Positions 20 to 60,135 of a stretch of 64,000 nucleotides of DNA are shown piece after piece (position 1 is the stretch's first letter; every line of letters starts with the position of its first letter). Where the stretch lies: the NCBI GenBank assembly GCA_030390025.1, contig CM059432.1:81098001-81162000 (forward strand). Direction: 5' to 3'. The notes below the pieces were generated by a model. It saw nothing but the letters and a program-made list of their open reading frames with translations. It was not told the DNA's origin and did not search any database. Source of the DNA: Squalus acanthias. Taxonomy: Eukaryota. Position numbers and translations under genes: made by a program.

Positions 20-1053
20 GTGGAAGAGCCTGAGCCAGAAGACTCCTCAGAGGAAGCTGCAACCTCTGAGGGCGCAGCGTCAGCAGAATTCAGTGCACCC
101 AGCACCAGCGCAGATACTCACACCTTGGTGAGACCTTTGGGAGATAGAGTAGTGTTGTCACCTGGTGTATCACAGCTCACAAGTGAGCATCAGCAGATGG
201 TGGAGACAGGGACAGCAGTGGAGAGTCCTCGTCGGAGGCCGCAGTGCGCTCCCAGCTCGGCTCAGCTGCATGTCGACCCTGTGCCTCCGGGTCCATCCAG
301 AAGGAGGGCGGTGCTGGAACTCCAGGAACAGGTGCAGGAGTCTCTGGCAGGTTTTGTCTCCAGGGTCACTGCGAGTGTGAGAGGATGGAGGAGTCCATCG
401 CTAACATGAGCAGAGCCTTTGTGGAGGCATTGGCGCATGAACGCATCACCATGGAAAGGATGGCAACCTCTGTGGAAAGGATGGCTACAGTGGAGGAGAG
501 GATGGCTATGGCTATGGAGGAGCTAAGTCGCCAGAGTGTTGAAAACATGGTGATTGTTCAGAATAGACTGACATCTCTGGAGGAGCGATGGGCAGCTATT
601 GAGCAGAGAAACCAGAGCTTCATGGAAGTCCTCTGGAGTAGAACTGCCAGTGCAGATATGAGTCCTCATGGTCCCCTTGAAGTGTAGCAAGGTGCTGTTA
701 AGTCACTTGCTAGCTCTGAAGTGTGGCTGACCCATGAGAGGGATGTTGGTGGCAGACAACAAGGAAGTGGGGGCTCCTCTCCAAGCGCTCACACTCCCAT
801 GCCACTGCAGAGCCCTCGGTCAGAGCCCCACCAGAGTCCTCACCCAACTGAGATGGGTGTCTCATCCCCTGCACAGCCGCAGGAGCAGCAGACTGTTGCC
901 GAGCCCGCACAGGCTCGCAACCCCAGAGGACGCCTGCCATAGGTGTCGAGGCAGGAGCAGCATATAAATGAGCAAGGGGCCTCCACATCTGCTGAAGCCA
1001 CAGGGGAAGCACCACGTAGGAGCATGCGTAAGAGGAAGATAAAGCACAAGTAG
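20..1053 (+). pseudogene. Last exon of Harbinger accessory (Myb/SANT-type ORF2) gene, frameshifted
   Basis: Pyrimidine tract and AG acceptor at 18-19; acidic region then coiled-coil (MERMATSVERMAT); basic C-terminus RRSMRKRKIKHK* at 1053; AATAAA at 1120; convergent with the transposase. The Myb domain itself is outside the window. Confidence 0.7.
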
Positions 1054-1311
1054 TCACAAGGGTAGTCACTTGGATGTTCTGTTGTGTTTAATTGTTAAGT
1101 GCCATCCTTTAGTCTATGTAATAAAATGAAGTGACGGCAAACTGTTGAAGTTCTGGGCTGTGTCATTTCGCTAATGAAAGTTCCACATTGAGGGCTCAGG
1201 GCGACTTGGATTTGTCATCATGGTGGTCAGAGTGATAGGAAGCCACAGGTTCTTGTCCATTGTCTATGGTGTGGTAAGAAGATGTGAGCCAAATGTGTTT
1301 GATTGCGCAAC

Positions 1312-2523
1312 CTAAGCAAATCTGTCCAAGATGAGTGCATCCCTTGCATCCCGGGCAGCAATTTGCTCGCGTCCTGCTGCTACTGGTTGATGCGCCTCGC
1401 ACAAGGTCTTCGTTCTCGCTCTTCTCCTCATCCTCATCCTCATCTGAGGAGGCTATGCGCTGAGCCACTTGTCCCTCCGGCAGCTGCAAGCCACGATGCT
1501 GTGCGAGGTTGTGAAGTGCACAGCAGACCACGACGATTCTGGAGACCCTGGCTGCTGAGTACTGCAGGGCTCCACCTGATCTATCAAGGCATCTGAATCG
1601 CATCTTCAGCAAGACGATGGTTTGCTCGATAATGGATCTGGTCAAAATGTGGCTGGAGTTGTAGCGCTCCTCAGCTTCGTTGGATGGGCTCCTCAACGGC
1701 GTCATTAGCCACGTCTTCAGGGGATAGCCCTTGTCTCCAAGTAGCCATCTGCAAAGTTGGTTTGGCGGTCTGAAGAGCGGAGGCACACTAGACTGGCGCA
1801 GGATGAAGGAGTCATGGCAACTGCCAGGGCACTCGGCGCAAACATGCAAAATTTCCTTCTTGTGGTTACACACCAGCTGCATGTTGAGGGAGTGGAAGCC
1901 CTTGCGGTTGACAAAAAGAGCTGGATTGTGATGGGGTGCCAGTCTACGACGCCCTGCACCCTTGGAAAGCCTGCCATATTTGCAAATCCAACTGCATGCA
2001 TGGTTACACTTGCTTGATCCTTGGAGAAGTTTATGTAATTGTGCGCCTTGGCAAAGAGGGCATCAGTAACCTGCGTGATGCAAGTGTGTGCGGCCGACTG
2101 GGAGATGCCGCTGATGTCTGCTGTTGATCCCTGGAATGAGCCTGAAGTAAAATAGTTGAGTGCGGTGGTGACTTTTACGGCCACTGGTAAGGAGTGTCCA
2201 CCCGCTCCTCTGGGCTCCAGGTATTTGTGCAGCATTGCGCAGATGTCACCCACTACCTCTTGCGAAAGTCTGAGCCTCCTTTGGCACTGCTGCTCAGTCA
2301 TGTTGAGGTAGCTCATCCTCTGTCTGTAAACCCTGTTTTGGGGGTATCTCCTGCGGCGACGTGCTTCCATGCGCTGGCGCCTTCTGGCCTGTGCAGCTTC
2401 AGGTTGGTGCTCCTGTTGTTGCTCCTGCTGTTGGTGCTCCTGTTGTTCCGGGTTCTGCTGCTGCCGCGGCTGGTCTTCGTCCGAATCTGAGGTCCAGGAG
2501 GAAAGGAAATAAATGGTTCCCAT
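1312..2523 (-). pseudogene. Harbinger (HARBI1-like) DDE transposase, apparently intronless, at least 2 frameshifts
   Basis: ORFs 1717-2523 and 1196-1882 give [64 protein letters not shown]-terminus [12 protein letters not shown] at 1312. Confidence 0.92.
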
Positions 2524-3116
2524 GCTGCTAGTATATACCTCAGTTGAGGAAGCGCTCAGTTAGTGTGGGGAGAGGGTTTTCCCAGGAGGTCACAGTGGAG
2601 ATGGATCTCAGCTTCACCACTTCCAAAATCAGTAGACCTGCAAAAAGTTCTCCAAGACCTGAAAAAGCAAAGTTCTGCCACCTGCAACTGATCCTTGTTG
2701 AAAACTCCGTTTTTATGGTGGAGCTGCAGCTGTTAGGAAGCCAGCCACTTGTCAACCCGACAAGATTAGCTGGCGTGTTTCAGGAGAAACGTGCAGCACA
2801 CTGGAAATGTGGCAAAATTTGAAAGGCCTCTCAAAATGGGATTATAGAGGTCATTAAGTAGCAGTTAAGTGCCTTAAGGGCCTATCCCGCCGCTTGGAGG
2901 CGGGACCAAAATGGAGTCTGCAAGCCCGCCTTTGGGAAAGTTGCAGGTCGACGGCGGGATCGGAACCCACCGTCATTTTTACAAATTTCCCACCTGACCT
3001 GCCTTCAAACCCGCCTCCTTGGGGCTGGCAAAATCCAGCCCTTAATGTTCATCTCATGCTTCTCAAGCAGCTAAATTGGCGTGTAAATGGCGAAACTGGT
3101 GAATATTTTGTTCAAT

Positions 3117-3235: not shown

Positions 3236-3653
3236 AATATTTTGTTAATCCGTTTGCTGATTGTGAAAGCTTAAATGGCTTAAGAAAGAGGCCCATTTTA
3301 TAAACTAAGGGGGCAATTTTTGCTGAATACTTTAGCTGGTAAAGAGCCTCCGAGGTGGCCAAGATGGGGTCTTACGCTGCAACGCCGGATTAGCCCACGT
3401 TTAGCGCAAGACTCCATCTTTGTAAAGGAGTTGAAGCCAGCCCCAGAAACGGCCGCCTGGATACTCGTTAAATAACTGATTATGACTTAAAATGCCTGCT
3501 AGCGCTCATAAAAGAGGCTGCATGGCATTTTGCTGGCTAGTGCTTCAACTTGAGGTTGAATCTATCTGATTTAGCACAGTGGTAGTGCCCCACAACAGGG
3601 GGTGTCCTCAGTGTGACGACCGTACTTCATCTCCACAAGGACTGTGTACTTGA

Positions 3654-3968
3654 GGTACGGTGGCATAGTGGACTAATAACCCAGAGGCCTGGACTAATAA
3701 TCTGGAGGCATGAGTTCAAATCCCATCACTGCAGCTGGGGAATTTAAATTCAGTTAATTAAATAAATCTGGAATAAAAAGATATATCAGTAATGGTGACT
3801 ATGAAACTACTGGATTGTTGTAAAAACCCATCTGGTTCACTAATGTCCTTTAGGGAAGAAAATCTGCCATCCTTACCTGGTCTGGCCTATATGTGACTCC
3901 TTTCTTTTTTCTTTCTTATATGTGACTCCAGACCCACAGCAATGTGGTTGACACTTAACTGCCCTCTG
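3654..3968 (+). mobile_element. tRNA-derived Pol III head plus Deu-domain body (SacSINE1/DeuSINE-like module) forming the 5' end of the following LINE
   Basis: A box TGGCATAGTGG 3661-3671, B box GTTCAAATC 3714-3722, then Deu-like core GGTCTGGCCTATATGTGACTCCAGACCCACAGCAATGTGGTTGAC. Confidence 0.8.
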
Positions 3969-6524
3969 GTACTCAGTTGTACCAATCCGCGACAGAAAAC
4001 AATAATAAGAATAAAACTGGATAGACAACCGACAGCGACCTCGGCTTCGGACACGGCAAAGGAACACCCAGCTCAATCGACCCTGCAAAGTCCACCTCAC
4101 TAACATCTGGGGACTTGTGCCAAAATTGGGAGAGCTGTCCCCCAGACTTGTCAAGCAACAGCCTGACATAGTCATACTCACAGAATCATACCTTTCAGCC
4201 AATGTCCCAGACTCCTCCATCAACACCGGCAGGACAGACCCACCAGAGGAGGTGGCACAGTGGTATACAGTCAGGAGGGAGTGGCCCTGGGATTTCTCAA
4301 CATTGATTCCAGACCCCATGAAGTCTTAAGGCTTCAGGTCAAGCACGGGCAAGGAAACCTCCTCCTGATTACAACCTACTGCCCTCCCTCAGCTGAAGAA
4401 TCAGTACTCCTCCATGTTGAACATCACTTGGAAGAAGCACTGAGAGTAGCAAGGGCACCGAATGTACTCTGGGTGGGGGACTTCAATGTCTATCACCAAG
4501 AGTGGCTCAGTAGCATCACTATTGGCCGAGTCCTGAAGGACATAACTGCCAGTCTGGGCCTGCAGCAGGTGGTGAGAGAACCTAACACGAAGGAAAAATC
4601 TACTTGACCTCATCCTCACCAACCTACCTGTCGCAGATGCATCTGTCCAAGACAGTATTGGTAGCAGTGACCACCGCACAGTCCTTGTGGAGGCGAAGTC
4701 CCGTCTTCACATTGAAGACGCCCTCCATCGTGTGTGGCACAACCACTGTGCTAAATGGGATAGATTCAGAACAGATCTAGCAGCTCAAAACTGGGCATCC
4801 ATGAGGCGCTGTGGGCCATCAGCAGCAGCAGAATTGTACTGCACCACAATCTGTAACCTCATGGCCCGGCATATCGCTCACTCTACCATTACTATCAAGC
4901 CAGTGGACCAACCAGTGTGGAAGAGCATGCCAGGAGCAGCACCAGGCGTACCTAAAAATGAGGTGCCAACCTGGGGATGATGCAACACAGGACTACATGC
5001 ATGCTAAATAGCAGAAGCAGCATGCTATAGACAGGGCTAAGCGATTCCACAACCAATGGATCAGATCAAAGCTCTACAGTCCTGACACATCCAGTCATGA
5101 ATGGTGGTGGACAATTAAACAACTAACGGGAGGAGGAGGCTCCAGGAATATCCCCATCCTCAGTGACGATGGAGCCCAGCATGCGAGTGCAAAAGACAAG
5201 GCTGAAGCATTTGTAATCATCTTCAACCAGAAGTGCTGAGTCAATGATCCATATTGGCCTCCTCCTGAGGTCCCCACCATCACAGAAGCCAGTCTTCAAC
5301 CAATTCAATTCTCTCCATGTGATATCAAGAAATGCTGAGTGCACTGGATGCAGCAAAGGCTATGGGCCCCAACAACATCTCGGCTATCGTGCTGAAGACT
5401 TGTGCTCCAGAACTAGCCGCGTGTCTAGCCAAGCTGTTCCAGTACAGCTACAACACTGGCATCTACCCGACAATGTGGAAAACTGCCCAGGTATGTCTTG
5501 TCAACGAGAAGCAGGACAAATCCAATTCGGCCAATTACCGCCCCATCAGTCGACTCTCAATCATCAGCAAAGTGATGGAAGGTGTCGTCGACAGTGCTAT
5601 CAAGTGTCACTTACTCACCAATAACCTGCTCATCGATGCTCAGTTTGGGTTCTGCCAGGACCACTCAGCTCCAGATCTCATTACAGCCTTGGTTCAAAAT
5701 TCCAGAGGTGAGGAATGAGTGACTGCTCTTGGCATCAAGGCAGCATTTGACTGAGTGTGGCATCAAGGAACCCTATTAAAATTGAAGTCAATGGGAATCG
5801 GGGAAAACTCGTCACTGGCTGAAGTCATACCTAGCACAAAGGAATTTGGCTGAGGTTGTTGGAGGCCAATCATCACAGGCCCAGGACATCACTGCAGGAG
5901 TTCCTCATGGCAATTTCCTAGGCCTTCCCTCCATCATAAGGTCAGAAGTGGGGATGTTGACTGATGATTGCACAGTGTTCAGTTCCATTCACAACTCCTC
6001 AAATAATGAAGCAGTCCATGCCCACATGCAGCAAGACCTCGACAACATTCAGGCTTGGGCTGCTAAGTGGCAAGTAACATTCGCGCCACACAAGTGCTAG
6101 GTAATTACTATCTCCAACAAGGGAGAGTCTAACCACCGCCCCTTGGCATTCAATGGTATTACCATTGCCGAATCCCCCACCATCAACATCCTGGGGGGTC
6201 ACCATTGACAGAAACTTAACTGGACCAGCCATATAAATACTGTGGCTGCAAGAGCAGGTCAGATGCTGGGTATTCTGCGGCGAGTGTCTCACCTCCTGAC
6301 TCCCCAAAGCCTTTCCACCATCTACAAAGCACAAGTCAGAATACTCTCCACTTACCTGGATGAGTGCAGCTCCAACAACACTCAAGAAGCTCGACACCAT
6401 CCAGGACAAAGCAGCCCGCTTGATTGGCACCCCATCCACCACCTTAAACATTCACTCCCTCCACCACCGGCGCATCGTGGCTGCAGTGTGTACCATCTAC
6501 AAGATGCACTGCAGCAACTCGCCA

Positions 6525-7474
6525 GTATTTATTAATGACTTAGATGATGGCATAGAAAGTCATATATCCAAATTTGCCAATGACACAAAGATAGGTGGCA
6601 TTGTAGTCAGTGTAAATGAAAGCATAAAATTACAAAGGGGTATCGACAGATAAAGTGAATGGGCAAAACTGTGGCAAATGGATTTCAATGTAGGCAAATG
6701 CGAGGTCATCCACTTTGGACCTGAAAAGGATAGAACAGGGTAGTTCCTAAATGGTGAAACGCTAAAAACAGTGGAGGTCCAAAGATCATTAAAATGTCAT
6801 GAACAGATACAGAAAGTAATTAAAAAGGCAAATAGAATGCTGGCCTTTATATCTAGAGGACTAGAATACAAGGGGGTAGAAGTTATGCTGCAGCTGTACA
6901 AAGCCCTGGTTAGACCACACCTGGAGTACTGTGAGCAGTTCTGGGCACCACACCTTAGGAAGGATATATTGGCCTTGGAGGGAGTGCAGCATAGATCTAC
7001 CAGAATGATACCCAGACTTCAAGGGTTAAGTTACAAGGATAGATTACACCAATTAGGCTTATATTCCCTAGAATTTAGAAGGTTAAGGGGTGATCTCATC
7101 GAAGTTTTCAAGATATTAAGGGGAACAAAAGGGTAGATAGAGAGAAACTATTTCCGCTGGTTGGGGATTCTAGGATTAGGGGGCATAGTCTACAAATAAA
7201 ACAAGCTAGACCTTTCAGGCGTGAAATTAGGAAACATTTCGACACACAAAGGGTGGTAGAAGTTTGGAACTCTCTTCCGCAAACGGCAATTGATGCTAGA
7301 TCAATTGTTAATTTTAAATCGGAGATTGATAGCTTTTTGTTAACTAAACTTATTAAGGGATATGGACCAAAGGCAGGTATATGGAGTTAGGTCGCAGATC
7401 AGCCATGATCTCATTGAATGGCAGAACAGGCTCGAGGGGCTGAATGGCCTACTCCTGTTCCTATGTTCCTATGT
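6525..7474 (+). mobile_element. 5'-truncated CR1 LINE nested in LINE copy 1
   Basis: INDLDDG..SKFANDTK, LVRPHLEYC, (ATGTTCCT)n tail; TSD TCGCCA at 6519-6524 and 7475-7480. Confidence 0.92.
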
Positions 7475-8099
7475 TCGCCAAGGCTTCTTCGATAGCACCT
7501 CCCAAACCTGCGACCTCTACCACCTAGAAGGACAAGGGCAACAGATGCATGGGAATAACATCACCTCCAAGTTTCCCTCCAAGTCACACACCATCCTGAC
7601 TTGGAAATATATCGCCATTCCTTGATCCTGGAACTTTGTCCCTGACAGCACTATGGGAGTAACTTCACCTTACGGATTGCAGCAGTTCAAGAAGGTGGCT
7701 CACCACCATCTTCTCAAGGGCAATTAGGGATGGGCAATAAATGCTGGCCTTGCCAGCGACGCCCACATCCCAGGAACGAATAAATAAAAAAGAACTAATG
7801 CGTTCTCATAACAGTGAGCAGCTGTTTGGGAGTAAACAGGACGTTGATGTCAATTTCAAGCTCTACTTTAAGGGATACTCACCATTCATGTTCATTGCTG
7901 TTGGAGCTGTGAAGAGGACCTCTGAAACACATCGGGAGACTTTCGGCGACACTTTGTCAAGACTTCGCTAACACTCGAGCAACAACTTTTATGGAAATTC
8001 TCTGAGGACTTCACCTAAAAAGAGTGAATGCTGTGCTACTCTACCTTATTGGACACCTGATAGGAGTCACCAGAAGAAAGGGAGCGCTTGGTCATGGGC

Positions 8100-8330
8100 A
8101 TCTTGGTAGGGTCCCCTTGGTCTGGACAATCAATGGGAGGAGGACATGAGGCCAGGCAGAGCAGCACCAGCTGCTGCATAAGAGAGGGACAGGAGGGCGA
8201 GGTGGACTCCTTCCCCCCTGCAGGTACAGGTCAGCCCTTCTTCTCTGGACCTCCTCCACCAAGACCTCCAGTACAGCATCTGAGAACCTGTGCGCCCTCC
8301 CTGAGCCATCCTGAAACCTGCTTCTGTGTG
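8100..8330 (-). pseudogene. Myb/SANT-like DNA-binding domain remnant of Harbinger ORF2
   Basis: RAHRFSDAVLEVLVEEVQRRRADLY, lying inside the 3309-8715 TIR element. Confidence 0.7.
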
Positions 8331-9039
8331 CCAGCCAGCACACTTCACACTTTCAATGGAAGTGGGTGGATGGAGCCTACATATACTCCTCATAAATTGC
8401 TTCTAATCTGCGCTTGAATGCAGGAATGACTTGTTTGCTCCCTATCAGCTGGTTGCTGTTAGGAAAGGGCGTTAGGTCAAACGCTAGCCACCAAAATGCC
8501 ATGCAGCCTCCTTAATGAGTGCTAGCAAGCAATTTAAGTGACAACCAGCCCCTTAGTGATCATCCGGGCTGCCGTTCCTAGCGCAAGATTCAACTCCTTT
8601 ACCAAGATGGCATCTTGTGCTAAATGTGGGCTAAACTAGCATTTTAGCTCAAGACCCCATCTTGGCCACCTTGGAGGCTCTTTAGTGCCTGAAGGAGCCG
8701 TTGAAAATCGCTCCCTATATGTCATATGGAATTGTTGACTACCCTGTTTATTTTATGAAAAGATACAACTTGCAAATGACAAAATTTGAAAGTGAGTTAT
8801 GTGGATCTTATTGAGTGGAATAATTGTATTAACTTGTGTGGTATTCTATCTAAATGTGTTGTAGTTTTATGTTATTTTATTAAAACGTTAAAATAAGCTA
8901 AGCTTTTAGTAATGGAATTGTGGTCAGATATGGTCGTCTCTGTTGTGCAATGCAGAGCCAGGATTGCTGTTAATTATGTCAATGGCGGTCTCCTTTGTTG
9001 GTGTGAGCACATGCATCAAGGAAGGATCTCCTCTTGACA

Positions 9040-9932
9040 TTGTACTCTCCTCCCTATTGCAAGTTGTCTTTCAAGAATTGTGGAGGTAGGTTAGTGTGAG
9101 CCCTGTTAAAGGGTTTTTAAGATGTATGAGGCAGCTTAGCATAGTGTATATGATGAGAGGAAGAAGCAGTAGGTGTGGGGAAGAGGGGGAAGTAGTTGTG
9201 AGAACAGCAAGTCGTGAGTGTGCAAGTGCATACAGAAGTAGATGCAGTGAAGTGTCCTGCTGTGATTGCAGAAGTGGCATGGGAAGCTGCGGAGGGATGT
9301 ATTGGTAGGGACTAAAATAGGGTGGTGCAGGACTGTACAGAGAGTAAGAGGGATGTGAAAAGGAGTCTAACCTTGGCAGTTCTGGTAAGGTCATTAAATT
9401 TCTTCCTGCACTGCTGCCAGGTCCTGGGAACAATGCTTCTGGCATTTACATGTTCTGTCACCTCTTCTCATTGCTGCTAGGAAAATTGCCTGCGCACGCA
9501 TCAACCATCACTGGGGAATACAACCTCTTTTCTGCTGCTCACTTGCTTTATGAGCACCTCCACCATGCCATCTGAAAACCTGAGATCCCTGGCTGCAGTC
9601 ATCAGCAGAATGTGAAAAATGAGTTCTAGTATCCAGCATATGAAAATTACACCTTTCCTTAAAGAGATGCAGGCTGCTTTTAAATGGAAACATCCCCACC
9701 AGATTTTCCACCTACCCAATCAGTGAGCTGACTATAGGGAGTGCGAATAACGCTGGAAATTCACCCTGAATATAATGAGGAACACACATGAAAATGAAAC
9801 ACACCTCCCATTGACTTCATCAGGTAGGCAGAGTGGACAGCTCGCGTACCCCCTGCCCGTGTACGCAAAAGATAAGAAACAATGCCATTATATCTACACT
9901 GCAGGCACATGTACAGTGCCCAGTTTTGCCCC
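9040..9932 (-). mobile_element. Old Harbinger remnant with Myb/SANT-like fragment
   Basis: RDLRFSDGMVEVLIKQVSSRKEVVFP (ORF 9501-9719) resembles the 8100-8330 remnant; terminus-like TTTTGCCCC at 9932. Confidence 0.55.
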
Positions 9933-14056: not shown

Positions 14057-14104
14057 ATGATCTACCCCCCACTCCCTGCCACATTCCAACCACAATCTCC
14101 CAAC

Positions 14105-15225
14105 CCCGACCTTCCATCCACGATCTCCCCTCGACCTTCCATCCACGGTCTCTCATCCGACCTTCCATCCACGATCTCCCCCCGACCTTCCATCCACGGT
14201 CTCTCATCCGACCTTCCATCCACGATCTCCCCCCGACCTTCCATCCACGGTCTCTCATCCGACCTTCCATCAACGATCTCTCCCCGACCTTCCATCCACG
14301 GTCTCTCATCCGACCTTCCATCCATGATCTGCCCTCCCCGACCTTCCATCCACGATCTCCCCCCGACCTTCCATCCACGGTCTTTCATCCGACCTTCCAT
14401 CAACGATCTCCCCCCGACCTTCCATCCATGGTCTCTCATCCGACCTTCCATCCATGATCTGCCCTCCCCGACCTTCCATCCACGATCTCCCCCCGACCTT
14501 CCATCCACGGTCTTTCATCCGACCTTCCATCCACGATCTTCCCCCCTGACCTTCCATCCACGGTCTCTCATCCGACCTTCCATCCACGGTCTCTCATCCG
14601 ACCTTCCATCCACGGTCTCTCATCCGACCTTCCATCCACGGTCTCTCATCCGACCTTCCATCCACGATCTCCCCCGACCTTCCATCCACGGTCTCTCATC
14701 CGACCTTCCATCCACGGTCTCTCATCCGACCTTCCATCCACGATCTCCCCCCGACCTTCCATCCACGGTCTCTCATCCGACCTTCCATCCACGATCTCCC
14801 CCCCGACCTTCCATCCACGGTCTCTCCCCGACCTTCCATCCACGGTCTCTCATCCGACCTTCCATCCACGGTCTCCCCACCCCAGACCTTCCATCCACGA
14901 TCTCCCCCCTCCGACCTTCCATCCATGATCACCCCCCTGACCTTCCATCCACGATCTCCCCTCGACTTTCCATCCATGATCTCCCCCCCGACCTTCCATC
15001 CACGATCTCTCCTCGACCTTCCATCCACGATCTCCCCCGACCTTCCATCCACGATCACCCCCCCGACCTTCCATCCACGATCACCCCCCCTGACCTTCCA
15101 TCCACGATCTCCCCCCCCCCGACCTTCCATCCACGATCTCCCCCCCCCCCCGACCTTCCATCCACGATCTCCCCACCCCTGACCTTCCATCCACGATCTC
15201 CCCCTCGACCTTCCATCCATGACAC
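14105..15225. repeat. C-rich minisatellite with interspersed ~24-27-bp variants
   Basis: Core CGACCTTCCATCCACG followed by either ATCTCCCC(n) or GTCTCTCATC, roughly 45 units. Confidence 0.95.
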
Positions 15226-15499
15226 CCTCCTCTCTGCTCCCCGGCTGTTGCACACCAGCCCAGGCTAGCCTGCCCAACAGCTAGTCAGCCTCTCAATCTG
15301 GATGGCTGCCAGGTGGGATATGGAGAAAATTAAATTAAATTAGGTCCTGCCGTTTAATTTGGCAGGACTTCCGTTTTACCCGCATTTCCAGTTTTCCCGG
15401 CTGCTCCGACCCCGCTCCTACCCCATCATCCGTAAATACTGGGGCCATTGTATCCACACTGAAAGATTCAGGACTGTGATTGTCACCAAGAAATAATTT

Positions 15500-18501: not shown

Positions 18502-20292
18502 ATGAGTCAGTATCTTCAGCAGAGGAGGAATGTAAACCACGAAGGGATGGAATTGACCAAATATTGCAGATGTAATCTCTAAGTTAAATACTGAAATACA
18601 AAGTCAAAAGGTAATTAGCTTATCCAATGAGTCATTTTGATTTCCTGATGTATCTATTTTCAGTGGAGTACGATTTACCCACTATCTAGGTTATGTCTTT
18701 GTGATTGGATAAATCCAGATGAAACCTTTATGGGTGTGATAACCTTTGAATACTTCTAACTAAAGATATTACAGTTGCAGAGCACATATAATGGGTTAAC
18801 TTTCACAGATTGATTTGGTTTAGTGGCTAGATAGTGAGTGCTAATCTCATTGGCCTTTCTGAAGGCTTATCTTAAAACTGCACCTTAAAGCAGATGAATG
18901 CAATCTGTCAATACTTTTTCAGTAACCTCATCGCTGGTATTATATGCAGTATAATTTTTTCATACTTTTATACTAGTACTAGTACTTTATTTTCCTCTGA
19001 ATATGTCTTTGCTTGCTTTAGCTTTAGAGCAACTCCTCCTCACCAATTTGCCATATTGCTAACTCTGCACTGAGTACATGAATTTATTGGATGAATTCAA
19101 ATATGTGGCACAGGTTAAGGATACAATAAGAACTTTTTTTTGCAAAGGATTGCATGAGTGAATTTATAAGCATATTAGGAATAATGTTTCATATATAAAT
19201 GACTACTTCAAAAGGAAATTCTCTTTGATTATAGATTGCTTTTTCATGCTCAATGCACCCATGAGTATCCCACTCACCACTGGCAGCAGGGTTTTAAACC
19301 TAATAAAACAAATGAGTCGGAAATTAAATTGTCTGAATCTGCATCAACCTGCGTTCACTTTATCCCACCATGGGACCTCTGACTTTAACTCTGGACTTCC
19401 TCCTATTGTCTCCTATCTATTCCCTGTTACTACCAGGAAATATGTATTCTAATCACTGCTACATAACCAGTCCTATATAACTTGCGTTTTCCCTGTGTCT
19501 ATTCGCATGCGCATTTTGGCTGCCGCTCCGGACCCGAGCCGATCACTTCTATTTCCACATTTTTCTCCCCCTTTTTCTTTCTCTCCAGCCCACCTTGACT
19601 GCTCTCTCCTGTCATCATGCCTCCTTTCATTTCTCCTCTCTTCGATACTCTGCCCTCCCAAATCTCTACCACAACCCTTCATTACTCTTCGACCTTCCTA
19701 CTCTCCTGCCCCCATCTCAGGTTTGACTCCCTCTTAGATAAGCCTACAGCTTCCCTCTGTGCCTCTCTTGGCATCCTCCGAAGGGCCCATCGAGGCACTC
19801 GTCACTGCCTCCTCACGAGCAGCAACCCCAACTGTATCATCCTAATCTCTCACCGACCTTCTTGCCCAGTGCACCTGCTGGGGGCTAACCTTGCCACTCT
19901 CCTCCCCATCCAACTCACCCCTCGCAGTGCTGACCCTGTGGATTCGGCAGCGGATCAGCTATCACCGCCCCTCTCCGCATCTTCCTCCAGACTGCCCGTT
20001 CATTTGTGAACAATGCCCTTGCCATCTATGAGCTTATCGAGGCTGATTGCATCAACATCATGACCTTGACGGAAACCTGGCTGAGTGGTGATGACATCTT
20101 ACCCCTAACTGAAGCCTCACCACCTAGCTGTGCCATCCACCACTTGCCCCGCCAGACCATCGCGGTGGCGGTGTGGCCCTTATCAGCAAATCACACCTTG
20201 GTCTGTCCCCCTACTCCTCTGGCACTTTCTCCTCCTTTGAGCATCTCACCTTGCTCCACCCCTCTCACCTCTCATTTAAAAACCTCGTTCTT

Positions 20293-23200
20293 TCCTTTTA
20301 TATTCGTTCCTGGGATGTGGGCGTAGCTGGCAAGGCCAGCATTTATTGCCCATCCCTAATTGCCCTTGAGTTGGTGGTGGTGAGCCGCCTTCTTGAACCG
20401 CTGCAGTCCGTGTGGTGATGTTAGGGAGGGAGTTCCAGGATTTTGATCCAGCGATGATGAAGGAATGGCGATATAGTTCCAAGTCAGGATGGTGTGTAAC
20501 TTGGAGTGGAACTTGCAGGTGATGTTGTTCCCATGCTCCTGCTGCCCTTGTCCTTCTAGGTGGAAGAAGTCGCGGGTTTGGGAGGTGCTGCCGAAGAAGC
20601 CTTGGCAAGTTGCTGCAGTGCATCTTGTAGATGGTACACACTGCAGCCATGGTGCGCTGGTGGTGCAAGGAGTGAATGTTTAAGGTGGTGGATGGGGCAC
20701 CTATCAAGCGGGATGCTTTGTCCTGGATGGTGTCGAGCTTCTTGAGTGTTGTTGGAGCTTCACTCATCCAGGCAAGTGGAGAGTATTCCATCACACTGCT
20801 GACTTGTGCCTTGTAGATGGTGGAAAGGCTTTGGGGAGTCAGGAGGTGAGACGCTCACTGCAGAATAGCCAGCCTCTGACCTGCTCTTGTAGCCACAGTA
20901 TTTATGTGGCTGGTCCAATTAAATTTCTGGTCAATAGTGACCCCCAGGATGTTGATGATGGGGGATTCAGTGATGGTCATGCCGTTGAATGTCAAGTGGC
21001 GGTGATTAGACTCTCTCTTTTTGGAGATAGTCATTGCCTGGCACTTGTGTGGCACGAATGTTTCTTGCCACTTATCAGCCCGAGGCTGAATGTCGTTCAG
21101 GTCTTGCTGCATTCGGGCATTGACTGCTTCATTATCTGAGGAGTTGTGAATGGAACTGAACACTGTGCAATCATCAGTGAACCTCCCCATTTCTGACCTT
21201 ATAGAGTTATAGAGTTATACAGCACAGAAAGAGGCCCTTCGGCCCATCGTGTCCGCGCCGGCCATCAAGCCCTGTCTATTCTAATCCCATTTTCCAGCAC
21301 TTGGTCCGTAGCCTTGTATGCTATGGCGTTTCAAGTGCTCATCTAAATGCTTCTTGAATGTTGTGAGGGTTCCTGCCTCTACCACTCTTTCAGGCAGTGA
21401 GTTCCAGATTCTAACCACCCTCTGGGTGAAAAAGTTTTTCCTCAAATCCCCTCCAAACCTCCTGCCCCTTACCTTGAAACTATGCCCCCTTGTTATTGAC
21501 CCCTCTACTAAGGGGAAAAGTTCCTATCTATGCCCCTCATAATTTTGTACACCTTAATCAGGTCCCCCCTCAGCCTCTCTGCTCTAAGGAAACAACCCCA
21601 GCCTGTCCAGTCTCTCTTCATAGCTGAAGCGCTGCAGCCCAGGTAACATCCTGGTGAATCTCCTCTGCACCCTCTCCAATGCAATCACATCCTTCCTATA
21701 GTGTGGCGACCAGAACTGCACACAGTATTCCAGCTGTGGCCTAACTAGCGTTTTGTACAGCTCCATCATAACCTCCCTGCTCTTATATTCTATGCCTCGG
21801 CTAATGAAGGCAAGTATCCCATATGCCTTTTTAACCACCTTATCTACCTGTCCTGCTGCCTTCAGGGATCTATGTACATGCATGCCAAGGTCCCTCTGAT
21901 CCTCTGTCCTTCCTAGGGTCCTACCATTCATTGTGTATTCCCTTGCCTTGTTAGTCCTCCCAAAATGCATCACCTCACACTTTTCAGGGTTAAATTCCAT
22001 TTTCCACTGTTCTGCCCATCTGACCAACCCGTCTATATCGTTCTGTAGCCTGAGGCTTCCCTCCTCGCTATTTACCACTCCACCAATTTTCGTGTCATCT
22101 GCAAACTTACTGATCATACCCCCTACATTCATATCTAAATCATTAATGTACACTACAAACAGCAAAGGACCCAGCACCGATCCCTGCAGTACACCACTGG
22201 ACACAGGCTTCCAGTCACAAAAAGAACCTTCGACCATCACCCTCTGCCTCCTGCCACTAAGCCAATTTTGGATCCAATGTGCCAAATTGCCCTGGATCCC
22301 ATGGGCTCTTACCGTCTTGACCAGTCTCCCATGTCGGACTTTGTCAAAAGCCTTACTGAAGTCCATGTAGACTACATCAACTGCACTACCCTCATCCACA
22401 CACCTAGTCACCCCCTCGAAAAATGCAATCAAATTGGTTAGACATGATCTCCCCCTGACAAAGCCATGCTGACTATCCTTGAATAATCCTTGCCTCTCCA
22501 AGTGGAGATTAATTCTGTCCCTCAGAATTTTTTCCAATAATTTCCCTACCACTGATGTTAGGCTCACTGGCCTGTAATTCCCTGGTTTATCCCTACTACC
22601 CTTCTTGAATAATGGTACTACGTTAGCTGTTCTCCAGTCCTCTGGCACCTCCCCTGAGGTTCTGAAAATTTGTGTCAGAGCCCCTGCAATCTCCTCCCTT
22701 GCCTCACACAGCAGCCTGGGATACATCTCATCTGGGCCTGGGGATTTATCCACTTTTAAGCCCGCTAAAACCGCTAGTACCTCCTCCCTCTCAATACTAA
22801 TTTGTTGAAGTATATCACAATCCCCCTGCCTGATTTCTATGCCTACATCGTCCTTCTCCATAGTGAACACAGATGCAAAATATTCATTTAAAACCTCACC
22901 TACATCTTCTGGCTCTACACACAGATTGCCACTTTGGTCCCTAATGGGCCCTACTCTTTCCCTGGTTATCCTCTTGCCCTTAGTATACTTATAAAACACC
23001 TGATGGAGGGAAGGTCATTGATGAAGCAGCTGCAGATGGTTGGGCCTAGGACACTGCCCTGAGGAACTCCTGCAGCGATGTCCTGGGGCTGGGATGATTG
23101 GCCTCCAACAACCACAACCATCTTCCTTTGTGCTAGGTATGACTCCAGCCAGTGGAGAGTTTTCCCCCTGATTCCCATTGACTTCAATTTTACTGGAGCT

Positions 23201-25022
23201 CCTTGATGTCGCACTCGGTGAAATGCTGCCTTGATGTCAAGGGCAGTCACTCTCACCTCACCTCTGGAATTCAGCTCTTTCGTCCATGTTTGGACCAAGG
23301 TTGTAATGAGGTCTGGAGCCGAGTGGTTCTGGCGGCACCCAAACTGAGCATCAGTGAGCAGGTTATTGGTGAGTAAGTGCCGCTTGATAGCACTGTCAAC
23401 AACACCTTCCGTCACTTTTCTGATGATTGAGAGTAGACTGAGGGGGTGGTAATTGGCCGATTGGATTTGTCCTGCTTTTTGTGGACAGGACATACCTGGG
23501 CAGTTTTCCACATTGTCGGGTAGATGCCAGTGTTGTAGCTGTACTGGAACAGCTTGGCTAGAGGCGTGGCTTGTTCTGGAGCACAAGTCTTCAGCATGAC
23601 AGCCGGGATGTTGTCAGGGCCCAAAGCCTTTGCTGTATCCAGTGCGCTCAGCGTTTCTTGATATCACGTGGAGTGAATCGAATTGGCTGAAGACTGGCTT
23701 CTGTGATGGTGGGGACCTCAGGAGGAGGCCGATATGGATCATTCACTCAGCACTTCTGGTTGAAGATGATTGCAAGTGCTTCAGCCTTGTCTTTTGCACT
23801 CACGTGCTGGGCTCCGTCATCACTGAGGATGGGGATATTCCTGGAGCCACCTCCTCCTGTTAGTTGTTTACTTGTCCACCACCATTCATGACTGGATGTG
23901 TTAGGACTGCAGAGCTTTGATCTGATCCATTGGTTGTGGAATCACTTAGCTCTGTCTATAGCATGCTGCTTCAGCTGTTTAGCATGCATGTAGTCCTGTG
24001 TTGCAACTTCCCCAGGTTGGCACCTCTTTTTTTTTTTAAGTACGCCTGGTGCAGCTTCTGGCATGCTCTTCTGCTCTCCTCATTGAACTGGGGTTGGTCC
24101 CCTGGCTTGATGGTAATGGTAGAGTGAGGGATATGCCGGGCCATGAGTTTACAGATTGTGGTGGAATATAATTCTGCTGCTGCTGGTGGCCCACAGCACC
24201 TCATGGTGTGCAGTTTTGAGCTGCTAGATCTGTTCTGAATCTATCCCATTTAGCACGGTGGTAGTGCCACACAACACGATGGAGGGTGTCCTCAGTGTGA
24301 AGATGAGATTTCATCTCCACACGGACTGTATAGTGGTAACTGCTACCAATGCTGTCATGGACAGATGCATCTGCGACAGGTAGATTGGTGAGGACGAGGT
24401 CAGGTAGGTTTTTCTCTTGTGTTGGTTCTCTCACCACCTACCACAGCCCTAATCTGGCAGCTATGTCCTTCAGGACTCGGCCAGCTCAGTCAGTAGTGTT
24501 GCTACCGAGCCACTCTTAGTGATGGACATTGAAGTCCCCCACCCAGAGTACATTCTGTGCCCTTGCTACCATCAGTGCTTCTTCCAAGTGGTGTTCAACA
24601 TGGAGGAGTACTGATTCATCAGCTGAGAGAGGGCAGTAGGTGGTAATCAGAAGGAGGTTTCTTTGCCCATTCTTGACCTGAAGCCATGAGACTTCATGGG
24701 GTCTGGAGTCAATGTTGAGGACTCCCAGGGCCACTCCCTCCCGACTGTATATCACTGTGCCACCACCCCTGGTGGGTTTGTCCTGCCGGTGGGACAGGAA
24801 ATACGCAGGGATGGTGATGGAGGAATCTGGGACATTGGCTGAAAGGTATCATTCTATGAGTATGACTATGTCAGGCTGTTGCTTGACTAGTCTGTGGGAC
24901 AGCTCTCCCAATTTTGGCACAAGTCCCCTGATGTTAGTGAGGATGACTTTGCAGGGTCAACTGGGCTGGGTGTGCCTTTGTCATTTCTGAAGCCAGTGCC
25001 GAGGTCGATGCTGGGTGGTCAG
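20293..25022 (-). mobile_element. SINE-headed LINE family, copy 2 (5'-truncated just upstream of EN), nested in L2
   Basis: Colinear with 4015-7790 including the 3' tail and the ~90-bp linker upstream of [24 protein letters not shown]. Confidence 0.9.
21201..23000 (-). mobile_element. Relatively young CR1 (471-aa open RT fragment) nested in LINE copy 2
   Basis: KSPGPD, NYRPVSLTS, YMDFSKAFDKV, KFADDTK; (ATAACTCT)n tail at 21201-21218; interrupts ...CTGACCTT|TGATGGAGGG. Confidence 0.95.
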
Positions 25023-26843
25023 TACATGTTTTTAAAAAAAAATTCTCTTCCACCCACCCAAGTACCATAAAAATGTTCTCACCGTGATATCTTCATTGAT
25101 TTTCTCCCTCTGCACCGAACGACTTCTCATCCTCGGTGATTTCAACCTCCATCTGAATTCATCATGCTCTCTCTCCTCTGAGTTGACTGCCCTCCTGTAC
25201 TCCCTTAATCTCTCCCTCCCTGTAAACTCTCCAACCCATATACACGACCTCCCCCTTGACCTTACCATTTCACGTGGCCTCGCCACTCCCATCATGTCAA
25301 TCACATATAAGGCCATCTCTGATCACATTCTTGTATCGCTCTACACCCACATCCCCCTTTCCCCCCCACCCACCCCCCCCAACCCTACTTCCTTCTGTGT
25401 CCGCTCCTGGAAAAAATTCTCACCCAACTCACTTACAACTGCACTTACAAAATCCCAACTCTCTAGCCTTTGGCCCTCCATTCACCATGACATTTCTGCA
25501 GTTACCAATCTGCTCAACCACACCCTCACCACCACTTTTGGTGGCCTAGTCCCTATTAAAACCATTACACTCTCTCACCCTGGTTGTTCCCCCGGTACGG
25601 CCCTCATCTCCGCTACCTTAAGTCCAAGGGACGCAGGCTTGAACGATATGGTGGACAACTGGTTTAGTCATTCACCGCCAGATCTGGCTGGACCACATAA
25701 AGCATTATCTGGTCCTGCTCTCGTCTGCCAACACTGCTCACTATTCCAGGATCATTCTGGAATGCAAAGATACCCCCCGACTTCTTTTCTCTACTGCTAA
25801 CTGTCTTCTTAAACCCCTCTCCCCTGTCTCCTCCACCCTCACCTCCAATAACAAGTGCGAGGAGCTCATAGACTTCTTTGTCTCTAAGATTGAGACCATC
25901 CGATCAGCTGCCTCTGCCACTTCCCTTCATTCCCCGAGCCCACCGGGCCAAACTTTTTCTGAGGTTTCCCCCCTGCTCTAGCCCTGAACGCACACCTTCC
26001 TCCAGTTTCTCACCGATCTCCCCTCATGCACTCTCCGAGCTCATCTTGTCCATGAGACCCACTTCCTGCTCCACCGACCCCTTTCCCACTAAACTGCTGA
26101 CCACCCAACTTCCTTTTCTGACTCCCATGTTAGCTGATATTGTTAATGGTTCTCTCTCCTCAGGTACTCTTCCCCTCTCCCTCAAATCTGCCGTCATCAC
26201 CCCTCTCTTCAAAAATCAACCCTTAACCCCTCTGTCCTTACAAACTACTGCCCCCATCCCCATCTCCAAAGTCCTTGAATGGGTTGTCGCCTCCCAAATC
26301 CGTGCCCATTTTTCCCGGAACTCCATGTTTGAATCCCTGCAATCGGGTTTCTGCCTCTGCCACAGTACCGAAATGGCTTTTATCAAAGTCACAAATGTGA
26401 CTGTGACAAAGGAAAACTATCCCTCCTCTTAATCTCGGACTGTCAGCAGCCTTTGACACAGTTGACCACTTCATCCTCCTCCAAAGCCTCTCCACCGTCA
26501 TCCAGCTGGGTGCGACTGCACTTGCCTGGTTTCATTCTTATCTATCTAATCGTAGCCAGAGAATTGCCTGCAATGGCTTCTCTTCCCACTCCCGCATCGT
26601 TACCTCTGGTGTCCCCCAAGGATCTATCCTTGGCCCCCTCTCATCTACATGCTTCCCCTCAGTGACATTATCTGAAAACACAACGTCAGTTTTGACATGT
26701 ACGCTGACGACACCCAGCTCTATGTCACCACTACTTCTCTCGACCCCTCCACGGTCTCTAAATTGTTAGACTGCTTGTCCGACATCCAGTACTGGATGAG
26801 CAGAAATTTCCTCCAACTAAATATTGGGAAGACCAAAGCCATT

Positions 26844-32886: not shown

Positions 32887-33510
32887 ATTGCAGTTGATGT
32901 GTATATGGACTGTGCAGTTGATGTTATGTATATGGACTGTGCAGTTGATGTTATGTATATGGACTGTGCAGTTGATGTGTATATGGACTGTGCAGTTGAT
33001 GTTATGTATATGGACTGTGCAGTTGATGTGTATATGGACTGTGCAGTTGATGTGTATATGGACTGTGCAGTTGATGTTATGTATATGGACTGTGCAGTTG
33101 ATGTGTATATGGACTGTGCAGTTGATGTGTATATGGACTGTGCAGTTGATGTGTATATGGACTGTGCAGTTGATGTTATGTATATGGACTGTGCAGTTGA
33201 TGTGTATATGGACTGTGCAGTTGATGTGTATATGGACTGTGCAGTTGATGTGTATATGGACTGTGCAGTTGATGTTATGTATGTCGACTGTGCAGTTGAT
33301 GTGTATATGGACTGTGCAGTTGATGTGTATATGGACTGTGCAGTTGATGTGTATATGGACTGTGCAGTTGATGTGTATATGGACTGTGCAGTTGATGTTA
33401 TGTATGTCGACTGTGCAGTTGATGTGTATATGGACTGTGCAGTTGATGTGTATATGGACTGTGCAGTAGATGTGTATATGGACTGTGCAGTTGATGTTAT
33501 GTATATGGAC
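32887..33510 (+). repeat. Minisatellite of ~25 units (24 and 27 bp) derived from CR1 RT coding sequence
   Basis: TGTGCAGTTGATGT(TAT)GTATATGGAC, translating as CAVDV(M)YMD and running in frame into FQNVFDKVPH. Confidence 0.95.
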
Positions 33511-34078
33511 TTTCAAAATGTATTTGATAAAGTACCACATTCTAGGCTTGTTAGCAAAATTGAAGCCCATGGGATAAAACGGGCAGTAGCAGCATGGATA
33601 CAAAATTGGCTGAGGGATAGAAAACAGAGAGGTGTGGTGAATGGCTGTTTTTCGGACTGGAGGGAGGTATACAGAGGCGTTCCCCGGGTTCAGTACGAGG
33701 GCAACTGCTGTTTTTGATACACATTAATGACTTGGACTTGGGGGTACAGGGCACAATTTCAAAATTTGCAAATGACACGAAACTTGGAAGTGTAGTAAAT
33801 AGTGAGGAAGATAGTAATAGACTTCAAGAAGACATAGACAGGCTGGTGGAATGGGTGGACACATGGCAGATGAAATTCAACGCAGAGAAGTGAGAGGTGA
33901 TACATTTTGGTAGGAAGAATGAGGAGAGACCTTACACACTAAATGGTACAATTTAAAGGGGGTGCAAGAACAGAGAGACCTGGGGGTGCTTGTGAACAAA
34001 TCTTTGAAGGTGGCAGGACCGGTTAACAAAGCAGTTAATAAAGCATATGGGATCCTGGGCTTTATAAATAGAGGCATA

Positions 34079-35426: not shown

Positions 35427-35636
35427 AATTTTGATAGGAGAATGAAAAGGTTGTTAAAATGAATTATAACTTGTTTTTAGCTTCGTCAGGTTGGGTCATC
35501 CCCTTCAAGTCCAGCCCATATTGATAATATAAATGAATATGGTAAAATGGATTAAATGAGCGGGCGGAACTGTGGCAGATGGAGTTCAGTGTGGGGAAGT
35601 GAGTGGTCATCCACTTTGGACCTAAGAAAGATAGAT

Positions 35637-37126
35637 TGTGTCGAGCTTCTTGAGTGTTGTTGGAGCTGCACTCATCCAAGCAAGTGGAGATTATTCCATC
35701 ACACTCCTTACTTGTGCCTTGTAGATGGTGTAAAGACTTTGGGGAGTCAGCAGGTGAGATACTTACCGCAGAATACCCAGCCTCTGACCTGCTCTTGTAG
35801 CACAGTATTTATGTGGCTGGTCCAGTTAAGTTTCTGGTCAATGGTGACCCCCCAGGATGTTGATGGTGGGGGATTCGGTGATGGTAATGCCATTGAATGT
35901 CAAGGGGCAGTGGTTAGACTCTCGCTTGTTGGAGATAGTCATTGCCTGGCACTTGTGTGGTGCGAATGTTACTTGCCACTTATCAGCCCAAGCCTGAGTG
36001 TTGTCCGGGTCTTGCTGCATGCGGGCATGGACTGCTTCATTATCTGAGGAGTTGCAAATGGAACCGAATACTGTGCAATCATCAGCGAACATCCCCCCTT
36101 TTGACCTTGTGATGGAGGGAAGGTCATTGATGAAGCAGCTGAAGATGGTTGGACCTAGGATATAGCCCTGAAGAACTCCTGCAGCGATGTCCTGGGGCTG
36201 AGATGATTGGCCTCCAACAACCACAACCATGTTTATGGGGTATGGCAACATAGTGGTTATGTTACTGGACTAGTAATCCAGAGGCCTGGACTAATGATCC
36301 GGAGACATGAGTTCAAATCCTACCATGGCAGCTGGGGAATTTAAATTCAAATAATTAAATAAATCTGGAAGAAAAAGATAGTATCTGTGATTGTGGGGAC
36401 CTCAGGAGAAGGATGCGATTGATCATCCACTAGGCACTTCTGGCTGAAGATGGTTGCAAACGCTTCAGCCTTGTCTTTTGCACTCAAATGCTGGGATCCG
36501 CCATCATTGAGGATGGGGATGTTCATGGAGCCTACTCTTCCCGTTAGTATTTTAATTGTCCACCATTCACTACTGGATGTGGCAGGCCTGTAGAGCTTTG
36601 ATCTGATCCGTTGGTTGTGGGATCACTTAGCTCTGTCTATAGCATGCTGTTTCTGCTGTTTACCATGCATGTAATCCTGTGTTGCAGCTTCCCCAGGTTG
36701 GCACCTCATTTTTAGGTACGCCTGGTGCTGCTCCTGGCATGCTCTTCTACACTTCTCATTGAACCAGGGTTGGTCCCCTGGCTTGATGGTAATGGTATAG
36801 TGAGCAATATGCCGGGCCATGAGGTTACAGATTGTGGTGGAATACAATGCTGCTGCTGATGGCCCACAGCGCCTCATGGATGCCCAGTTTTGAGCTGCTA
36901 GATCTGTTCTGAATCTATCCCATTTAGCACGGTGGTAGTGCCACACAACACGATGGAGGGTGTCCTCAGTGTGAAGATGGGACTTCGTCTCCACAAGGAC
37001 TGTGTGGTGGTCACTCCTACCAATACTGTCATGGACAGATGCATCTGCGACAGGTAGATTGGTGAAGACGAGGTCAAGTAGGTTTTTCCCTCGTGTTGGT
37101 TCTCTCATCACCTGCTGCAGGCCCAG
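35637..37126 (-). mobile_element. SINE-headed LINE family, copy 3 (two pieces separated by an oppositely oriented tRNA head)
   Basis: GMFADDCTVF; HTEDTLHRVVWHYHRAKWDRF; colinear with copies 1 and 2. Confidence 0.88.
36238..36390 (+). mobile_element. tRNA-derived Pol III head fragment of the same family
   Basis: CATAGTGG..., B box GTTCAAATC 36311-36319, GCAGCTGGGGAATTTAAATTCA as at 3731. Confidence 0.85.
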
Positions 37127-49836: not shown

Positions 49837-49928
49837 AACCACCATCTTCTCAAGGGCAACTAGGGATGGGCAATAAATGCTGGCACTGCCAGCGACGCCC
49901 TGATCTCATAAACGAATAAAATAAAAAA
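49837..49928 (+). mobile_element. Isolated 3' tail of the SINE-headed LINE family
   Basis: ACCACCATCTTCTCAAGGGCAACTAGGGATGGGCAATAAATGCTGGC...GAATAAAATAAAAAA equals 7702-7790. Confidence 0.85.
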
Positions 49929-58797: not shown

Positions 58798-59900
58798 TCT
58801 TTAATATATTGTAGATTATAATATCAAATCAAATATTACATAAAAATAAGGACAGACACATGACCTTAAAACAGGGAGTTGAGTTTTTGGTTTTAACTAA
58901 GTGATGACAATTGTTGATGTCTATCCTATTTCTGTTCCTGATAAATAATAATATCTAGGACTGTAGTTCCTTGCAGCAATATAAAGATTGAACTCCCTTC
59001 TCCTGACACATCTCAAAAGGCTTTTTAAATGAATTGTTTTGAAGTAAGTCCCTTAACTCCTCGGTTATACTGTAGTAGAAATTCATACCCCTGTTATGAT
59101 GGGGGAGGAGGGGGTAAGCTCATTCTGCAAACATGGTAATGCTAGTAACTGCCATGGGATTCCCAAATCTTGTTTTAAATAGCAAAAGTGAGGGCCACTC
59201 ACTCAGTCCCCTCTGTGTGTAGACCTACACTAGTGTGAGTCAGTGCCTTCAGAGGAGGGGTCGAAGCAAAGAATATTGAAGGAAAGAAATAATTGCATCC
59301 AAGAAAAGAGATTATTTGGTCATGTTCTTTGTATGTATCAGCAAACTTTCCTTCCTTAAACAATACAGCAGTTTAGCCGCATTTGTAAAGCTATTTTAGC
59401 AAAGTTGCAAGCTAAGGTAGAAGCTGCTTATAAAACTCAGAGTTTCTCTCTTCCAGATGATTTACCAGATTGAAGTTTCTGAGAGCCTTCGTGTATGTTG
59501 AACATCGATACTTTATGCTCACAGTCACCTCTTTGGGATCCCAGTCAGTGTGTCAACATGACTCGGGCCCTTTTATCTATCCAGCTGCAAGTCCTCTCTT
59601 TCCTACTGCTTCCTGAGTTCCCACTCGCCCATGAGCTTCCCTACGCCTCCATAGTTCACTGTTAATGGGCTGGACTGGAGCCCCTATCTCATCAACATCA
59701 CTAATGTAGTGATTCCAGCTGCTGCATACTGTAGCCGGGAGTTCTCATGAAAAGAGGACTTCCTGCCCACAGTATACAGTGGCAGGTATCACTACCATTA
59801 GCCAGGCTGAGGAAAGTGGGGCACTGATTTTACCCATTAGCAATGGACTTAGGTGGAAGCAAGGAAGGGTGGGAATGGATGACAATAAGGAGTTGGAAAT

Positions 59901-60135
59901 GGATGGCAATGAAGGGACAATGGATAACATTAAATAGGGAGTTGATGGCAATGAAGGAGGAAATGGATAACATTAAATAGGGAGTTGATGGCAATGAAGG
60001 AACAATGGATAACATTAAATAGGGAGTTGATGGCAATGAAGGGACAATGGATAACATTAAATAGGGAGTTGATGGCAATGAAGGGACAATGGATAACATT
60101 AAATAGGGAGTTGATGGCAATGAAGGGACAATGGA
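59901..60135. repeat. 42-bp tandem repeat, ~5.5 copies
   Basis: GATGGCAATGAAGGGACAATGGATAACATTAAATAGGGAGTT. Confidence 0.93.

Follow-up and report, generated by a model that had tools for sequence, protein, structure and literature searches.

Can a protein-coding long interspersed nuclear element (LINE) have, as its own 5′ end, a tRNA-derived module of the kind that heads a short interspersed nuclear element (SINE)? The question is raised by a retroelement at positions 3654–7791 (plus strand) of a 64,000 nt stretch of the Squalus acanthias genome (GenBank assembly GCA_030390025.1, contig CM059432.1, positions 81,098,001 to 81,162,000), which was analysed as a whole and is referred to as the window. 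In this decayed copy (copy 1), a tRNA-like head, a conserved body, a linker, a frame for endonuclease and reverse transcriptase and a short tail follow one another, interrupted by a nested CR1 element. Our reading is that copy 1 represents a shark family of CR1-group LINEs which lacks a first open reading frame (ORF1), has the SINE-type module as its own 5′ end and is likely to be transcribed by RNA polymerase III (Pol III) through a coding strand free of T-runs; we give this reading a probability of about 0.52.

Layout of the element

The head (3654–3790, plus strand as for all parts of copy 1) contains an A box at 3661–3671 and a B box at 3714–3722, followed by an A/T-rich stretch, and leads into the body (3791–3983, ~170 bp) and the linker (3984–4098, ~130 bp), the 3′ part of which forms an Arg-rich leader in the endonuclease frame. 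Both boxes had been proposed in an initial annotation of this DNA and were confirmed from the sequence, as was its observation that neither a SINE tail, nor poly(A), nor a duplication separates the body from the endonuclease. Copy 1 has lost 12 nt just behind the A box and ~15 nt at 3969, and carries a T-rich, copy-specific insertion within the body (3888–3929, including a 13 nt duplication; net 29 nt), which the outside contigs described below skip. The endonuclease begins with the residues TNI at 4099, and the decayed single open reading frame (ORF) runs to 6524 with many frameshifts and stops, is split by the 3′ fragment of a vertebrate-type CR1 LINE (6525–7475), which has a 5–6 nt duplication at its flanks and is foreign to the unit, and resumes at 7476–7727 with a TAG stop at 7725–7727. 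The 3′ untranslated region is short (7728–7791), with a predicted stem-loop, an AATAAA at 7736–7741 and an A-rich end. By eye, the tail of the nested CR1 is like those of CR1-1_CM and CR1-11_CM as displayed in Fig. S5 of PMC7245038. With nested pieces removed and the losses of copy 1 added back, the unit sums to ~3.3 kb.

Coding for endonuclease and reverse transcriptase, as initially annotated, was borne out by Pfam matches of the frameshifted ORF pieces to Exo_endo_phos_2 (E 8.8e-08) and RVT_1 (E 2e-4 and 1e-3, both below the curated cut-off), and by collinear tblastn alignment to relatives of 941–983 aa. An apurinic/apyrimidinic (APE) endonuclease followed by reverse transcriptase in one ORF is a feature of the CR1 group. 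The ORF1 found upstream of ORF2 in that group has no space in copy 1, where the ~440 nt between the element start and the endonuclease are filled by head, body and linker, in agreement with the earlier remark that there is no room for it. The impression that the ORF reaches the very 3′ end stemmed from a deletion in copy 2 and was rejected. The same hairpin was predicted for the ~60 nt tail in 3 of 3 tails, at a stability not beyond that of shuffled sequences (z −1.42 to −1.46). Pieces of head and body likewise did not fold more stably than shuffled sequences (z −0.16 to 1.2), and we therefore claim no structure or ribozyme.

The head has the A and B boxes of a tRNA-derived sequence and matches the Rfam tRNA model weakly (16.5 bits, E 1.4, cut-off 29); ARAGORN called no tRNA within it, and no Rfam match reached the gathering score anywhere in the window. 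Weak matches to SNORA5 (E 0.011) and to long non-coding RNA models were taken as chance. Position 3654 lies 7 nt before the A box, the expected position 1 of a tRNA, and the second head of the window, in copy 3, starts at the same base, so that 2/2 heads begin where a tRNA would and contain both boxes internally, the arrangement of a type 2 Pol III promoter. In both copies the head also displays two similar tandem units of ~20 nt (3670–3710 and 36262–36310), resembling a duplicated anticodon arm.

The body had been described as a Deu-like core and the module likened to SINEs of the DeuSINE/SacSINE1 type, neither of which the motif tests upheld. Two 17–18 nt motifs of the published Deu alignment were searched at up to 3 mismatches; the first had no match, and the second had two chance-level matches inside the ORF and none in the body. 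A single 18 nt Meta motif matched only at 9533, outside the element and with 3 mismatches, a score reached by 10 of 100 shuffles. These were tests of motifs only, with the SacSINE1 sequence itself outside the comparison. The body may have some likeness to the AvaIII-type SINEs of salmonids. The Deu core in Fig. S4 of PMC7245038 is unlike the body by eye. Judged by these motifs, the body is distinct from the published Deu and Meta cores, and we do not retain the DeuSINE/SacSINE1 label for the module. No short SINE form consisting of head and tail was found in the window.

Other copies in the window

Copy 2 (20287–25032, minus strand) is 91% identical to copy 1 and is truncated at its 5′ end inside the linker. 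Its similarity begins at 25032, equivalent to 4013, and the stretch equivalent to 4013–4045 is shared beyond chance (0 of 2,000 shuffles reached the linker score); farther upstream, neither head nor body was matched significantly (shuffle P 0.054). The claim that copy 2 keeps the same linker thus failed as worded, as only the last ~85 nt are present, with neither head nor body, before another LINE adjoins. The adjoining sequence at 25036–25800 is an endonuclease piece on the opposite strand (Pfam E 6e-4). Copy 2 has its own nested CR1 (~21203–23000), with a 476-codon open reverse transcriptase frame at 21584–23014 on the minus strand (RVT_1 E 1.5e-34), and in both long copies the nested CR1 has the same orientation as its host element.

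Copy 3 (35634–37126, minus strand) consists of two LINE pieces, equivalent to 4554–5286 and 5847–6401, around a head at ~36237–36395 on the plus strand (match at 36263–36395). This head extends from the first base of the element to the A-rich stretch and replaces ~560 nt of LINE sequence. Copy 3 had been said to sit beside the same head; the head is indeed there, but points the opposite way to the minus-strand LINE pieces around it and does not lead into an endonuclease. Its orientation would fit twin priming from a full hybrid RNA, but antisense insertion with a deletion is simpler, and we did not use copy 3 as support. An inverted 92 nt piece of the LINE family (3557–3648, equivalent to 4677–4768; 81–84% identical to the three copies) immediately precedes the copy 1 head, and the head of copy 3 likewise follows antisense LINE sequence. 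A 91 nt fragment of the 3′ end of the family lies at 49838–49928 (plus strand).

The junction in contigs of four organisms

Contigs from 4 of 24 runs, one per organism (A, B, C and E, one of which may be the species of the window itself), were placed on 3601–4500 at 80% likeness, with 26,124–67,219 contig records placed per run. The results given here come from 32 of 190,595 pieces, 24 of 4,369 rows of loose ends and 40 of 136 rows of differing letters. The body is high-copy in all four organisms. Behind position 3968, contigs of all four runs have loose ends (267, 421, 711 and 388 contigs), whose 30-letter consensus (agreement 0.62–0.67) fills the ~15 nt loss of copy 1 and then matches 12 of 14 letters of 3970–3983. 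Among the rows listed, other letters shared between contigs occur over the linker from 3982 to 4063, for instance at 3982, 3986 and 3991 (44–113 contigs per run) and at 4027 (32–44), which marks the linker as multi-copy. Joins of head and body are found among the listed contigs (e.g. 3669–3886 and 3687–3898), linker and endonuclease are joined in contig records 19 and 28 (spanning 3996–4184 and 3996–4194), and loose ends at 3669, near the loss behind the A box, occur in run X1. No alternative sequence upstream of the endonuclease was seen in the 24 of 4,369 loose-end rows listed. Scans of viral, metagenome and prokaryote-genome contigs found nothing.

The predicted unit is thus supported link by link, with the step from body to linker the weakest. 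The claim that head, body, ORF and tail form one unit gains support from these outside contigs and from the absence of T-runs described below, and not from copies 2 and 3; on that basis we regard it as a multi-copy unit and not a set of chance neighbours. That the architecture is real as a family, though mislabelled as Deu, we hold with considerable confidence.

Absence of T-run terminators

Runs of ≥4 T terminate transcription by Pol III, according to passages in PMC4758252 and PMC4494074. The sense strand of the element contains none in 3,143 nt of copy 1, 2,935 nt of copy 2 or 1,339 nt of copy 3, where the copy 1 count omits the nested CR1 and 3899–3930; the only such run of copy 1 lies within the copy-specific insertion at 3888–3929. 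By comparison, seven other LINE pieces of the window have 40 runs in 8,403 nt, at or above expectation. The number expected in copy 1 was 5.25 by base shuffling (P 0.004) and 2.66 by dinucleotide shuffling (P 0.05), and on its in-frame segments 3.70 and 2.53 under synonymous models (P 0.018 and 0.067). The P values of copies 2 and 3 ranged from 0.014 to 0.33 across models. As the copies are ~91% alike, this is one borderline-to-good signal and not three. Runs of four A were not depleted (14 observed versus 14.3 expected), and the Phe codons TTT/TTC are used 4/11, 3/14 and 1/10 times in the element copies versus 11/10 and 5/5 in the nested CR1s. Apart from one copy-specific insertion, the three copies accordingly lack the internal terminators expected to stop Pol III, at borderline significance, and its transcription of the element would be a fair reading, at even odds.

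Candidate translation start

Seven ATGs lie upstream of the endonuclease in copy 1, none of them in its frame, and the earlier observation that no ATG lies between the in-frame TAA at 4012 and the endonuclease is correct for this copy. The TAA probably says little about the ancestral frame, as it lies upstream of three indels between copies 1 and 2 (+1, +1 and +6 nt at 4017, 4032 and 4042). The frame of the ATG at 3942, within the body, is open in copy 1 until a stop at 4101, and the summed +1, +1 and +6 shifts relative to copy 2 would join it to the endonuclease frame. ATG 3942 could thus be the start codon if the two copy-specific 1 nt losses are real, which we treat as a lead; were it correct, some of the ‘SINE body’ would belong to the LINE coding sequence, and derivation of the SINE by deletion would be favoured. 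Searches of proteins for extensions at the N terminus, in which only longer proteins were covered and which are weak evidence, found nothing, and the two shark gene models that matched both lacked the start of the endonuclease.

Lineage and relatives

The element ORF matches, in order along their length, four clusters of long relatives (including the intact proteins P0014, P0019, P0040 and P0094), which lie on contigs of 3.6–4.1 kb with space for one ORF. The lack of ORF1 may therefore predate the head, and the lineage can be ORF1-less. For P0014, the ESM Atlas returned endonuclease and reverse transcriptase families only. Gene models of Heterodontus francisci and Rhincodon typus are 52–74% identical to the element, and a CWC25 gene model of H. 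francisci (P0001) opens with ~120 residues of the LINE ORF, either by exonisation or as a gene-model artefact. In a quick tree of reverse transcriptases (83 rows picked by length and coverage from 150 search hits, with no named Zenon reference), the element and a whale shark protein form a pair; the group around them (SH-aLRT 91) contains a moth protein and invertebrate-type proteins, and the nested vertebrate CR1 falls outside it. The best reading of these data is an ORF1-less, single-ORF LINE of the CR1 group that is abundant in sharks. It may be CR1-Zenon-like, a label that is a lead from listings and paper passages and not a tested match.

Like the element, LINES of the CR1-Zenon type (CR1 group, Jockey superfamily) encode an APE endonuclease together with a reverse transcriptase in a single ORF and end in a short tail, and they have been reported in the whale shark (10.1101/443036); the ORFs of Heliconius Zenon elements begin at 172 and 590 (PMC4016481). 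They differ in that the passages concerned describe no tRNA head or Pol III transcription, and bivalve CR1-Zenon consensuses are longer, averaging 5.2 kb (PMC10294476). The DeuSINEs SacSINE1 and LmeSINE1, with their partner L2-2_CM (Luchetti 2017, PMC5499810), likewise combine a tRNA head, a conserved body and a LINE-type tail in cartilaginous fish, but are presented there as non-coding, <470 bp in length and homologous to the LINE in the tail only, and their Deu motifs were not found in the body of the shark element. In Bov-tA, SINE2-1_ACar and other tRNA-headed bipartite LINE derivatives a tRNA head is joined to the 5′ part of a LINE, but, as described in PMC4494074 and PMC5786205, the head sits on an internally deleted, non-coding derivative and the clades are RTE and Vingi only, whereas the shark element is a full coding LINE of the CR1 group that bears the head itself. 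RTE-1_DAn and relatives are LINEs containing tRNA-like sequence, but belong to the RTE clade, and the passage in PMC5786205 states neither position nor function and deems the hits accidental. The TRIMp3 elements Cassandra, Helenus and Ajax are non-SINE retroelements with a Pol III promoter derived from a small RNA, but are of the long terminal repeat type, non-coding and 311–1263 bp long (PMC10886601). Prior work, in the parts of it consulted, thus covers LINE derivatives with deletions to which heads were added, SINEs that use LINE promoters, TRIMs transcribed by Pol III and a single RTE containing tRNA-like sequence (PMC5499810, PMC7245038, PMC5786205, PMC4824008, PMC3747384, PMC11481361, PMC10294476, PMC4494074, PMC4016481, PMC10886601, PMC4758252, PMC10468316, 10.1101/443036). 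A description of a coding LINE with a SINE head was not found in our literature search, which did not extend to Repbase, Dfam, the 2006 DeuSINE paper or most subscription papers.

Weighing the explanations

In the reading that we prefer, the tRNA-like head and body would lead straight into the endonuclease as the likely 5′ end of the family itself, and this module would probably drive Pol III through a coding strand without T-run terminators, yielding an RNA of ~3.3 kb that would serve first for translation and then, from its 3′ stem-loop, as the template of reverse transcription. Most full-length copies would carry the head, translation would be cap-independent, perhaps starting at ATG 3942, and short SINEs with the same head would be internal-deletion derivatives. 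We put forward a bolder form tentatively, at somewhat under even odds: the element would be autonomous and protein-coding, and Pol III would transcribe its whole length from the tRNA-derived internal promoter. The 3 kb frame would have been cleared of terminators, and the start codon would lie within a body shared with the SINE, which would be the LINE minus its middle. Several observations weigh against the preferred reading. The tRNA match of the head is weak, the AATAAA near the element end suits RNA polymerase II (Pol II) as well, and transcripts of Pol III have no cap and are considered short (PMC10886601). The T-run result is borderline, with P 0.13 for copy 2 and 0.19–0.33 for copy 3 under the stricter models, the copies are not independent, and runs of three A and three C are also slightly under-represented. 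As to the start codon, the +1 at 4017 is found at the margin of the similarity with copy 2 and holds in three of four gap settings, and the path from ATG 3942 meets a TAG at 4022 in copy 1, where copy 2 differs. As to the junction, it is held by one of the three long copies in the window, no target-site duplication enclosing the head-to-tail unit was found in copy 1, none of the 32 of 190,595 pieces listed crosses from body into linker with 31 letters to either side or reaches from head to endonuclease, and contig depth over the linker is 10–100 times or more below that of body and endonuclease.

These last points bear on whether the unit exists at all. Chance neighbourhood of a tail-less SINE and a truncated LINE would account for the single junction and the missing duplication, and copy 3 shows that a head can sit within the LINE in opposite orientation; against it stand the hundreds of contigs in four organisms that leave the body with letters entering the linker, the multi-copy linker joined to the endonuclease, and the stretch 4013–4045 that copy 2 shares beyond chance, which make it very improbable. 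The low linker depth would suit a different history, in which template switching joined the 5′ half of a SINE to a 5′-truncated LINE and the chimeric subfamily spread in trans, while an autonomous parent kept a conventional 5′ end. We did not take the low depth as a true break, since depth also collapses at the in-ORF deletion of copy 1 (550–3,108 at 4223 versus 188,000–1,054,000 at 4250). The lack of a start codon in the endonuclease frame of copy 1 would agree with such a chimera, as would the average length of the bivalve consensuses and the known addition of heads at retroelement 5′ ends (described in a passage of PMC4494074), but no alternative 5′ sequence appeared in the loose-end rows listed, the relatives appear to be ORF1-less, the body holds a candidate in-frame ATG, and the absence of T-runs over the whole coding strand suggests long selection and not a late fusion; we consider it improbable. 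The family may, alternatively, be real from head to tail and yet be transcribed by Pol II, with the head a captured relic or passive 5′ part, a Pol II promoter in the body and a lack of T-runs that stems from the base composition and codon preference of the element. Passages of PMC10886601 and PMC5786205 assign the transcription of LINEs to Pol II, a coding RNA requires a route to the ribosomes, the AATAAA is at hand, and the T-run depletion weakens to P 0.05–0.33 in models that preserve dinucleotide content or the element's own codon use. The intact boxes and the 5′ ends at tRNA position 1 in both heads, together with the T-runs at or above expectation in other LINEs of the window and the undepleted A4 runs, speak against this explanation, which we find unlikely though well worth bearing in mind.

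Other features of the window

An inverted pair of 243 nt sequences, 77% alike (3308–3550 and 8474–8716), flanks the element at a distance and may represent the ends of an older DNA transposon. A frameshifted DDE_Tnp_4 transposase at 1196–2559 (minus strand; Pfam E 7.9e-32) faces a coiled-coil-like ORF at 187–687 (plus strand). We take the transposase to be Harbinger-like, and 8095–8352 (minus strand), which had no Pfam match, presumably has the look of its Myb-type partner. Self-comparison detected tandem repeat arrays at 14059–15232, 32889–33511 and 59859–60216.

Implications

LINEs are described as transcribed by Pol II and SINEs by Pol III, a division that would not hold if the bolder form of our reading is true. 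A coding retrotransposon of 3.3 kb under a tRNA promoter would be a natural Pol III messenger and a direct test case for the translation of such an RNA without a cap. The element also lets the origin of a conserved SINE body be traced, a point that PMC5786205 leaves open, in a LINE group where none has been found. Even under Pol II, this would be a LINE layout for which we found no description, and it would alter the annotation of shark repeats.

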